Sequence record: PQ516281
Strand: one strand, 5' to 3'
Length of the DNA stretch: 64,000 nt
Source: Escherichia phage vB_EQ1
Shown here: positions 39,452 to 39,500 of the stretch, piece after piece
Layout of the letters: the number at the start of each line of letters is the position of its first letter
How positions within the stretch are numbered: the stretch's first letter is position 1
Translations under genes and position numbers: made by a program
Notes under the pieces: model-generated
What the model saw: the letters and a program-made list of their open reading frames with translations, nothing else
Databases searched by the model: none
What the model was told of the DNA's origin: nothing

Positions 39452-39500
39452 CTCCAGTAGTTGATAGGTCTATAATAACACAACTACTGGAGAAGTAAAC
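39452..39500 (-). promoter_or_regulatory. Early promoter with 12-bp inverted repeat flanking the -10 and covering the downstream SD
   Basis: Arms ctccagtagttg / caactactggag; minus strand GTTTAC-ttctccagtagttgtgt-TATTATAGACC. Confidence 0.5.

Follow-up and report, generated by a model that had tools for sequence, protein, structure and literature searches.

Escherichia phage vB_EQ1 is represented here by a 64,000-nt stretch of sequence record PQ516281 (the window), which comes from an RB69-like T4-type phage of the genus Mosigvirus, as identified by 98-100% sequence identity to Mosigvirus genomes. A motif repeated along its minus strand consists of the sigma-70-type early promoters of a T4-like phage together with one middle promoter, that of gene 55 (late sigma factor gp55); each promoter is packed in a cassette of about 60 bp that ends with the Shine-Dalgarno sequence (SD) and ATG of the next gene. 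At about one fifth of the promoters (39500, 26580, 32615 and 60566, and weakly 62898 and 39934), termed class A, the SD and/or start codon is predicted to fall inside one arm of an inverted repeat. The best explanation of this arrangement, judged on balance to be the probable one, is that the spacers of early and middle promoters gate translation of class A genes on read-through RNA. The observations behind it are the sequence anatomy of the cassettes, a statistical excess of pairing, covariation, conservation across genera and predicted folding.

The focal cassette, 39452-39500, reads on the minus strand TAA-GTTTAC-tt-CTCCAGTAGTTG-tgt-TATTAT-agacctat-CAACTACTGGAG-aacaaa-ATG; the two arms of its inverted repeat match perfectly over 12 bp and enclose a 17-nt loop in which the -10 element sits, and the coordinates and arms are exactly those given in a preliminary description of the window made from its letters. 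The surrounding region (37500-41500) matches Escherichia phage MRostami-2023e at 100% identity and many Mosigvirus genomes at about 98%; the annotated relative moha has a hypothetical gene on either side of the focal site, with helicase gene 41 further upstream and dmd further downstream. The Mosigvirus focal cassette is identical in 78 records and carries one to three differences in 56; in the five variant records inspected, the arm changes are an A-to-G substitution giving a G.U pair and a change of a loop-closing pair. The 105-aa protein encoded downstream (phrog_2110) has no Pfam hits and is conserved from coliphages to T4-like phages of Aeromonas, Acinetobacter and Klebsiella; its gene nearly always has its own promoter (39128-39445 and loci L002-L051), and a few records label its relatives as ADP-ribosyltransferase.

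In the proposed mechanism RNA polymerase would read the promoter spacer loosely, leaving the spacer free to carry a second message. When transcription enters the cassette from an upstream promoter, the spacer would become the 5' arm of an RNA hairpin and pair with a 3' arm encoded past the local start site; in class A this 3' arm would be the SD and/or AUG, so that the read-through mRNA would be closed to ribosomes, while mRNA started locally would lack the 5' arm and hence be open. Translation of a class A gene would in this way be tied to the firing of its own promoter, which would give immediate-early-only translation for genes such as the mod-like ADP-ribosylase and middle-mode-only translation for gp55. 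The existence of read-through RNA, the folding of the hairpin in the cell and the reduction in translation are inferred. The transcription start site (TSS), predicted as the A at the seventh base past the -10 at all sites except the T4 P55 orthologue, lies downstream of the entire 5' arm at every class A site. The seventh base past the -10 is A in 21/24 window promoters, and in T4 the middle promoter P55, whose start has been mapped (40180), initiates at an A seven bases past TATAAT, which supports the start-site rule applied to the window.

A catalogue of 24 window promoters underlies all such counts. The spacer of each promoter pairs more strongly with its own leader than with that of another, the mean duplex energy being -10.0 kcal/mol for own pairs and -7.0 kcal/mol for mismatched pairs (permutation p <= 5e-5; 24 promoters). 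The opening penalty, defined as the cost of opening the RNA from SD through AUG in the read-through RNA minus that in the locally started RNA, is 11.7 kcal/mol at 39500, 13.8 at 26580, 13.0 at 32615, 8.6 at 60566 and 8.0 at 62898; occlusion is bimodal, as beyond these five high sites two promoters lie near 4 kcal/mol and the remainder between -1 and 3 kcal/mol. A penalty of at least 8 kcal/mol, a threshold that was set after the data were seen and replicated unchanged in T4, is found at 5/24 promoters as against 3.6% of chimeras that join the upstream half of one promoter to the downstream half of another (p = 5e-4). Predicted read-through folds reach -21.9 kcal/mol at 39500 (z = -4.5), -23.9 at 26580 (z = -6.4), -24.0 at 32615 (z = -3.6) and -22.5 at 60566 (z = -4.1), whereas RNAs started locally at the same four sites have predicted energies of 0 to -3 kcal/mol and positive z scores. 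When the spacer alone is shuffled, occlusion at the class A sites falls from 11.6 to 5.9 kcal/mol.

Genes lacking a promoter of their own provide a comparison for these values. Among 49 promoter-less minus-strand genes, folded in 140-nt context, the cost of opening the SD averages 4.8 kcal/mol with a maximum of 10.9, and 0/49 reach 12 kcal/mol, whereas 4/19 promoter-associated genes lie at 12-18 kcal/mol (Fisher p of about 0.005 by hand arithmetic); extreme occlusion is thus confined to genes at which a local promoter offers a way round it, in line with the model. Second among the promoter-less genes, at 10.3 kcal/mol, is the soc homologue (34144-34380, 78 aa, minus strand, ATG at 34380), in which ACACCTGTAATTAA pairs with TTAATTATGGGTG across the start codon (window 34144-34420) and a late promoter, TATAAATA, lies 39 nt upstream; as soc is a textbook gated gene, its score is the positive control of the occlusion method. 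No copy of TATAAATA is found in the class A hairpin loops, where the gating promoters are of the early sigma-70 type or P55.

The preliminary description had placed the -10 in the loop of an inverted repeat in many copies of the motif and had tentatively extended SD hiding, known from T4 e and soc, to early genes in general. At about 14/24 promoters a helix surrounds the -10 or takes it in, about 10/24 having no meaningful repeat. All four repeats that it quoted exist; the SD lies in an arm at 39452 and 26530, but not at 61725-61765 or 21581-21639, where the 3' arm stops far short of the SD. The general extension fails, as SD hiding is predicted at 5/24 promoters only and most repeats are short -10 helices that leave the SD open; the suggested difference between read-through and promoter-proximal folds is predicted at 39500, 26580, 32615 and 60566 (closed and open, respectively), while 19/24 promoters stay below 8 kcal/mol. 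The mechanism put forward there appears, on these folding predictions, to be right in kind, to apply to a minority of sites and not to be specific to the window phage.

T4 itself displays the same pattern. Scanning T4 bases 1-78000 with the position-weight matrix of the Mosigvirus promoters gives 22 minus-strand and 0 plus-strand promoters; their own spacer/leader duplexes average -12.1 kcal/mol compared with -7.7 kcal/mol for mismatched ones (p <= 5e-5). Penalties of at least 8 kcal/mol occur at 4/21 promoters, with a fifth (e.8) borderline, against 2.6% of chimeras (p = 0.002); the values are 15.7 kcal/mol for the gene starting at 53885, 12.1 for regB, 9.0 for modB, 8.9 for denV and 8.0 for e.8. 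The class split is the same in T4, so the arrangement is not peculiar to the window phage. The T4 ipII-denV spacer, GTTTAC-a-TCTCCTGTAG-...TACTAT...-CTACAGGAGA-...ATG, is a cassette of the 39500 type in which the central A-T pair is changed to T-A, and this denV cassette (NC_000866 65352-65414), the counterpart of window 39452-39500, is 84% identical over 60 nt to the cassette 5' of phrog_2110 in Mosigvirus. The genes behind the near-identical cassettes, denV in T4 and phrog_2110 in Mosigvirus, are unrelated, and the gene upstream of the focal cassette differs between Mosigvirus and Dhakavirus; the compensatory swap and the unrelated downstream genes fit mobile promoter cassettes.

Orthologues of gene 55 were compared through 33 IMG/VR loci plus T4, with one representative per lineage taken to give 11 lineages. 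The upstream regions retain TGATATAAT about 30 nt 5' of the ATG, with an anti-SD arm further upstream; this arm is lineage-specific in sequence and position and fits the bases on either side of the SD core, the arm pairs including AGTATCTC/GAGGTACT (Mosigvirus), TCCTCT/AGAGG (T4 group), TGCCTCTT/AAGAGGCA, GGCCTC/GAGGCC and CTTCCG/CGGAAG. Occlusion over the 11 lineages is 6.4 kcal/mol with own arms and 2.7 kcal/mol with mismatched arms (p <= 5e-5), and the inner helix occurs as GGTCT/AGACC, as GGTCT/AGATC in T4 (with a G.U pair) and as GATCT/AGATC. Column-wise covariation in the gene 55 outer helix failed, with 58% paired, because the pairing register shifts between lineages. Orthologue retrieval gave three loci each for the mod-like gene and for the 174-aa gene behind 26580. 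Occlusion at the first mod gene is 9.0 kcal/mol in T4, 13.0 (window) and 10.4 (related contig) in Mosigvirus and 15.3 in Dhakavirus; the arms have different sequences across the three genera, and the -10 itself is part of the 5' arm in both T4 and Mosigvirus. Upstream of gene 55 (11 lineages) and the mod genes (three genera) the design is conserved with lineage-specific matching arms.

A further group of hairpins, class B, comprises seven or eight promoters, about one third of the total, with a helix of 6-12 bp; its 3' arm reaches no further than the start site and leaves the SD free. An unbiased test was made by scanning IMG/VR for TACAAACTCTT-N7-GAGTATAAT with the 3' arm unconstrained; the 13 distinct cassettes recovered are 99% paired over eight positions, and 4/8 pairs show two-sided changes. 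The covariation score is 0.486, compared with 0.254 for shuffled sets (0/500 shuffles as high), and slid controls are 36-52% paired. All one-sided changes give G.U on the sense strand, as expected of pairing in RNA and not of a symmetric structure in DNA. The class B hairpin is under selection and does not hide the SD; its role is most likely to isolate the translation start from upstream sequence, or to mark a processing or 3'-end boundary. In the folding model the class B SD is slightly more accessible than with shuffled spacers (3.1-3.5 and 4.4-4.5 kcal/mol, respectively), which, read post hoc, suggests an insulating role. The TACAAACTCTT...GAGTATAAT backbone is present in up to three copies per genome, 5' of different genes (ndd, motB and others), among T4-like contigs of IMG/VR (L100-L130); the backbone of these copies is identical, while their 6-8-bp arm pairs differ.

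The identity of the promoters is well marked. The exact motif GTTTAC-N17-TANNAT occurs 6 times against 0.29 expected, 6/6 on the minus strand; a position-weight scan gives 20 strong minus-strand sites and 0 plus-strand sites at every threshold tried, and as the matrix was trained on the same sites it scored and is hence overfitted, the plus strand without hits is the meaningful control. A looser regular expression finds 41 minus-strand and 19 plus-strand matches, with 17 per strand expected. Generic sigma-70 scans for TTGACA/TATAAT find 54, 75 and 79 sites where 64, 70 and 72 are expected, which is no enrichment; the discriminating signal is accordingly the T4-specific -35. The early-type promoters number 20 strong sites plus three with a TTGTAC or ATATAC -35, with spacers of 17-18 nt and a -10 of TAnnnT; TGn precedes the -10 in 18/24 promoters, A or T makes up 12-19 of the 20 bases upstream of the -35 in most of them, and the distance from -10 to ATG is mostly 26-31 nt. 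All sites lie on the minus strand, immediately 5' of minus-strand open reading frames (ORFs) and in ORF orientation. The recurrence of the motif noted in the preliminary description is upheld, and all of its coordinates (15/15 of its first class and 3/3 of its second) are promoter-like and directly 5' of a minus-strand ORF. Its -35, GTTTAC, applies to most sites but not to 25961 (ATGTAC) or 60525, which has no -35; the latter (60566 here) is not an early-type promoter, as had been supposed, but corresponds by orthology to P55, a mapped middle promoter of T4. Six promoters were missing from its list: 62898, 61770 (as a promoter), 34096, 31978, 31237 and 11456.

T4-type early promoters are a published class, with 57 predicted in RB69 (Nolan et al. 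2006, PMC1524935; Hinton 2010, PMC2988021). The window promoters share their GTTTAC, 17-18-nt spacer, TGn plus TAnnnT, A/T-rich upstream region and C-rich positions -3 to -1, as well as their place directly 5' of early ORFs on the early strand; the promoter itself is no different. Spacer-leader complementarity is not mentioned in these papers, and PMC1524935 contains no instance of hairpin or stem. Promoter-early stem-loop (PeSL) cassettes have also been described (Arbiol et al. 2010, PMC2839356; Comeau et al. 2014, PMC4122927); they resemble the window cassettes in combining an early promoter, a stem-loop in or over the promoter and a 3' SD/ATG, in recurring between small early genes and in placing the same cassette 5' of unrelated genes in different phages. 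The class B hairpins correspond to the published PeSL stem-loops (AGNA-loop-TCNT of PST/T4). PeSLs are read as terminators or attenuators and recombination sites, and PMC2839356 never uses the word translation; unlike the PeSL description, in a subset of the window cassettes the spacer pairs with the SD/AUG, there are no U-tracts and the arms co-evolve with the SD flanks.

Hairpins over the translation start that are gated by a promoter are known from T4 e, soc, 49, I-TevI and segB and from Aeh1 mobE (PMC3014915; PMC2988022). These also hold the SD/AUG in a helix on the long RNA, with an internal promoter starting between or inside the arms and giving a short RNA that is open; however, all published cases have late promoters of the TATAAATA type and late genes, as PMC2988022 states explicitly. 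In the window, by contrast, the gating promoter is of the early sigma-70 type or, for gene 55, a MotA-type middle promoter, and the 5' arm is formed by the promoter spacer or by sequence immediately ahead of it. The region 60506-60582 shares with T4 P55 (40180; Hinton 2010, Table 1) the TGaTATAAT, the start position and the nested helices; in the accessible literature P55 is described as a promoter only, with neither read-through SD occlusion nor lineage-specific anti-SD arms. SD gating by early or middle promoters was not found in the accessible literature, although an older description of early-promoter hairpins over ribosome-binding sites may exist; the motif and the promoter/stem-loop composite are already known, and what would be new is early- or middle-promoter gating with the spacer as the 5' arm.

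The published PeSL interpretation, in which the stem-loops are terminators or attenuators that halt upstream transcription shortly ahead of the local start as well as sites of gene-shuffling recombination, is the nearest competitor and is considered unlikely. In RB49 and phi1 the PeSL stem-loop lies between -35 and -10 or over the -10, and one such stem-loop cut lacZ expression as much as rrnB T1 (PMC2839356); the PST/T4-type PeSLs (TTTACW-N17-TAYWAT with AGNA-loop-TCNT stems; PMC4122927) also fit the TAGGACT/AGTCCTA helices of the window. None of the promoter-embedded hairpins in the window, however, has a U-tract, the sequences that follow being aacaaaaug, aauaauaug and caaaac; terminator-like hairpins occur only as separate elements upstream of some promoters, and class A loops of 17-29 nt are atypical of terminators. 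For lack of U-tracts the hairpins are considered unlikely to be intrinsic terminators. Termination would also leave unexplained why arm complementarity falls exactly over the SD/AUG and tracks lineage-specific SD flanks. A part in recombination, to which the near-identical cassette 5' of the unrelated denV (T4) and phrog_2110 (Mosigvirus) points, is compatible with translational gating and does not exclude it. Less likely again is a role in mRNA stability or processing, with the hairpins forming 3'-end barriers that guard the upstream message, capping the 5' end left by an RNase E cut or screening GGAG from RegB on long transcripts. The hairpins lie exactly at gene junctions and selection acts on sense-strand pairing with G.U tolerated, as such a role would have it; GGAG, the RegB target, is present in 9/24 SDs (for RegB biology see PMC3014915, PMC2988021), and class B helices leave the SD unaffected, so that some other RNA-level role is needed for them. 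Class A is nevertheless not limited to GGAG SDs, as gene 55 and 62898 use GAGG, and neither the constant position of the 5' arm upstream of the local start site nor the restriction of extreme occlusion to promoter-bearing genes would follow from stability or processing.

Action at the level of DNA, through cruciforms or single-strand hairpins that affect the promoter, replication or recombination, or through sites for dimeric proteins, is very improbable. The repeats are centred on the -10, and PeSL stem-loops block sequencing reactions on single-stranded template (PMC2839356), both of which would suit such action; yet the arm sequences are wholly different between promoters, which leaves no common protein site, and the deviations are sense-strand G.T, that is A.C on the opposite strand, a mismatch that should be excluded from a symmetric structure in DNA. 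A common protein-binding palindrome was rejected, the arm sequences being unrelated. Least credible of all is the absence of function, whereby the repeats would be by-products of template-switch (quasi-palindrome) mutation and the copying of promoter cassettes. The perfect 11-12-bp arms at 39500 and 26580, which vary little among about 130 near-identical genomes, could be recent, and the strong focal hairpin is lineage-specific; against this, orthologous and paralogous cassettes keep their complementarity through many different arm sequences, T4 repeats the pattern, and the Mosigvirus arm changes are G.U or affect the loop-closing pair. This reading is already disfavoured by the covariation.

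Several points weigh against the gating of translation by promoter spacers. Its functional side rests entirely on thermodynamic prediction, and in the cell the hairpin could be weakened by ribosomes completing the upstream ORF or by co-transcriptional folding. The SD-hiding model suits only about one promoter in five, the threshold and the matrix were shaped by the data to which they were applied, and paralogous cassettes are non-independent observations. The focal 12-bp helix is confined to Mosigvirus; the Dhakavirus version of the focal gene has a weak, split helix of 5+4 bp with 4-5 kcal/mol, and three phage genomes retain CAACTACTGGAG with neither the partner arm nor the -35. The gain from silencing the focal read-through copy is also unclear, as both upstream promoters are early. 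A broader proposal is put forward tentatively and is thought possible rather than probable: across T4-like phages, dual-coded spacers may leave the next gene closed (class A) or insulated and open (class B) on read-through RNA, a genome-wide, start-dependent translation code that would time gp55, ModA/ModB, RegB and DenV and would travel with mobile cassettes. If gating by promoter spacers is true, protein output would track promoter firing rather than the presence of mRNA, which would explain how toxic or timing-critical products (RNA polymerase ADP-ribosylases, RegB, gp55) are carried within long transcription units. The PeSL stem-loops would gain a new interpretation, and promoter spacers could hold a second, RNA-level message. 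Timed gene expression in phages is studied with T4 as the reference; the cause of its sharp shut-off of early protein synthesis is still described as unknown (PMC2988021).

Table. Promoter cassettes, hairpin arms and related repeats in the window (positions of the 64,000-nt stretch).
Feature	Position	Strand	Remarks
Focal -35 GTTTAC	39495-39500	-	Abuts TAA stop (39501-39503) of upstream 124-aa ORF
Focal 5' arm CTCCAGTAGTTG	39481-39492	-	Within promoter spacer; predicted anti-SD, only in read-through RNA
Focal -10 TATTAT	39472-39477	-	Preceded by TGt; in hairpin loop; predicted TSS is A at 39465
Focal 3' arm CAACTACTGGAG	39452-39463	-	Contains SD GGAG (39452-39455)
Focal ATG	39443-39445	-	Opens 105-aa ORF 39128-39445; phrog_2110, function unassigned
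Class A cassette 26580	26532-26580	-	-35 at 26575-26580, -10 at 26552-26557; ATG 26523-26525 of 174-aa ORF
26580 5' arm CTCCTCTGGTT	26562-26572	-	
26580 3' arm AACCAGAGGAG	26532-26542	-	Holds SD
Class A cassette 32615	32552-32615	-	5' of first ModA/ModB-like ADP-ribosylase gene (31978-32559); -35 at 32610-32615
32615 5' arm	32582-32597	-	Includes -10 TATGAT (32587-32592)
32615 3' arm	32552-32567	-	Includes ATG (32557-32559) and part of SD
Gene 55 (late sigma factor) leader, class A	60510-60582	-	Three nested helices; orthologue of T4 middle promoter P55
Gene 55 outer helix AGTATCTC/GAGGTACT	60575-60582/60510-60517	-	Second arm holds SD
Gene 55 middle helix GCTT/GAGC	60569-60572/60521-60524	-	
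Gene 55 inner helix ATAGGTCT/AGACCTAT	60557-60564/60530-60537	-	
Gene 55 -10 TATAAT	60538-60543	-	In loop; predicted TSS 60531
Early promoter 62898, borderline class A	62848-62898	-	-35 at 62893-62898, -10 at 62870-62875
62898 weak anti-SD TCCTC/SD GAGGA	62887-62891/62848-62852	-	
Early promoter 39934	39882-39934	-	Follows gene 41 terminator; moderate occlusion, 4.1 kcal/mol
39934 7-bp anti-SD TTCCTCT/AGAGGAA	39919-39925/39882-39888	-	
Class B early promoter	61730-61770	-	12-bp helix ACGATAGGAAGA (61752-61763)/TCTTCCTATCGT (61730-61741) around -10; SD excluded
Class B promoter ATATAC-18-TATAAT	61435-61470	-	GAGAGA (61451-61456)/TCTCTC (61435-61440); TACAAACTCTT-N7-GAGTATAAT cassette family
Class B ndd promoter TTGTAC-18-TATAAT	16544-16580	-	TGAGAGCA (16560-16567)/TGCTCTCA (16544-16551); TACAAACTCTT-N7-GAGTATAAT family
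Class B promoter	17317-17353	-	TAGGACTA (17333-17340)/TAGTCCTA (17317-17324), -10 between
Class B promoter	16803-16841	-	GGTAGGATTA (16821-16830)/TAGTCCTATC (16803-16812); two sense-strand G.U pairs
Class B promoter of sp (spackle) homologue	37948-37982	-	GGACTA (37962-37967)/TAGTCC (37948-37953)
Class B promoter ATGTAC-18-TACTAT	25967-26001	-	GGTCTA (25981-25986)/TAGACC (25967-25972)
Early promoters without significant inverted repeat	38694-38723, 38264-38293, 34067-34096, 31949-31978, 31209-31237	-	
Further promoters without significant repeat	27509-27538, 14245-14273, 13924-13952 (motA), 11427-11456 (asiA), 519-548	-	
Promoter with weak repeat only	28066-28095	-	
11-bp perfect inverted repeat GGCACTATTAC/GTAATAGTGCC	21624-21634/21584-21594	-	29-nt loop

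The window carries tail-fibre genes on the plus strand at 590-11119 and minus-strand genes from about 11.1 kb to its end; the latter include asiA, motA, ndd, rIIA, dda, the mod genes, soc, the primase gene, 41 and uvsX, and further 43, 45, 46, 47 and 55. An Rfam scan of the whole window gave no family matches, and a tRNA scan of it found none. The 21584-21634 repeat lies between the stop of a 366-aa ORF and a 66-aa rIIA.1-like ORF (21358-21558); it has no GTTTAC -35, a possible TGaTAGATT is present in its loop, and the SD lies outside the arm.

Two near-identical minus-strand promoters, GTTTACttttgcttcaaacatgaTA(T/G)TATagacctatcaaaac, lie 320 bp apart at 13924-13952 and 14245-14273 and precede motA (13254-13886) and a 71-aa ORF, both of which start MSK; by its sequence the pair looks like a tandem duplication of a promoter and gene start. 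A perfect GTTTAC-18-TATAAT at 62166-62195 (minus strand) lies inside coding sequence with no nearby ORF start and is conserved at the equivalent place in T4 (41232-41261); it appears to be a putative intragenic early promoter. GC-rich hairpins with UUCG-type tetraloops and T-runs (e.g., GGAGACttcgGTCTCCttt, AAGGAATCCttcgGGATTCCTTttttttt) are found on the minus strand at 39935-39965, 34115-34136, 18166-18181 and 59015-59034, upstream of early promoters or gene starts; those at 39935-39965 and 34115-34136 adjoin early promoters, forming terminator-then-promoter junctions as in T-even-type PeSLs.

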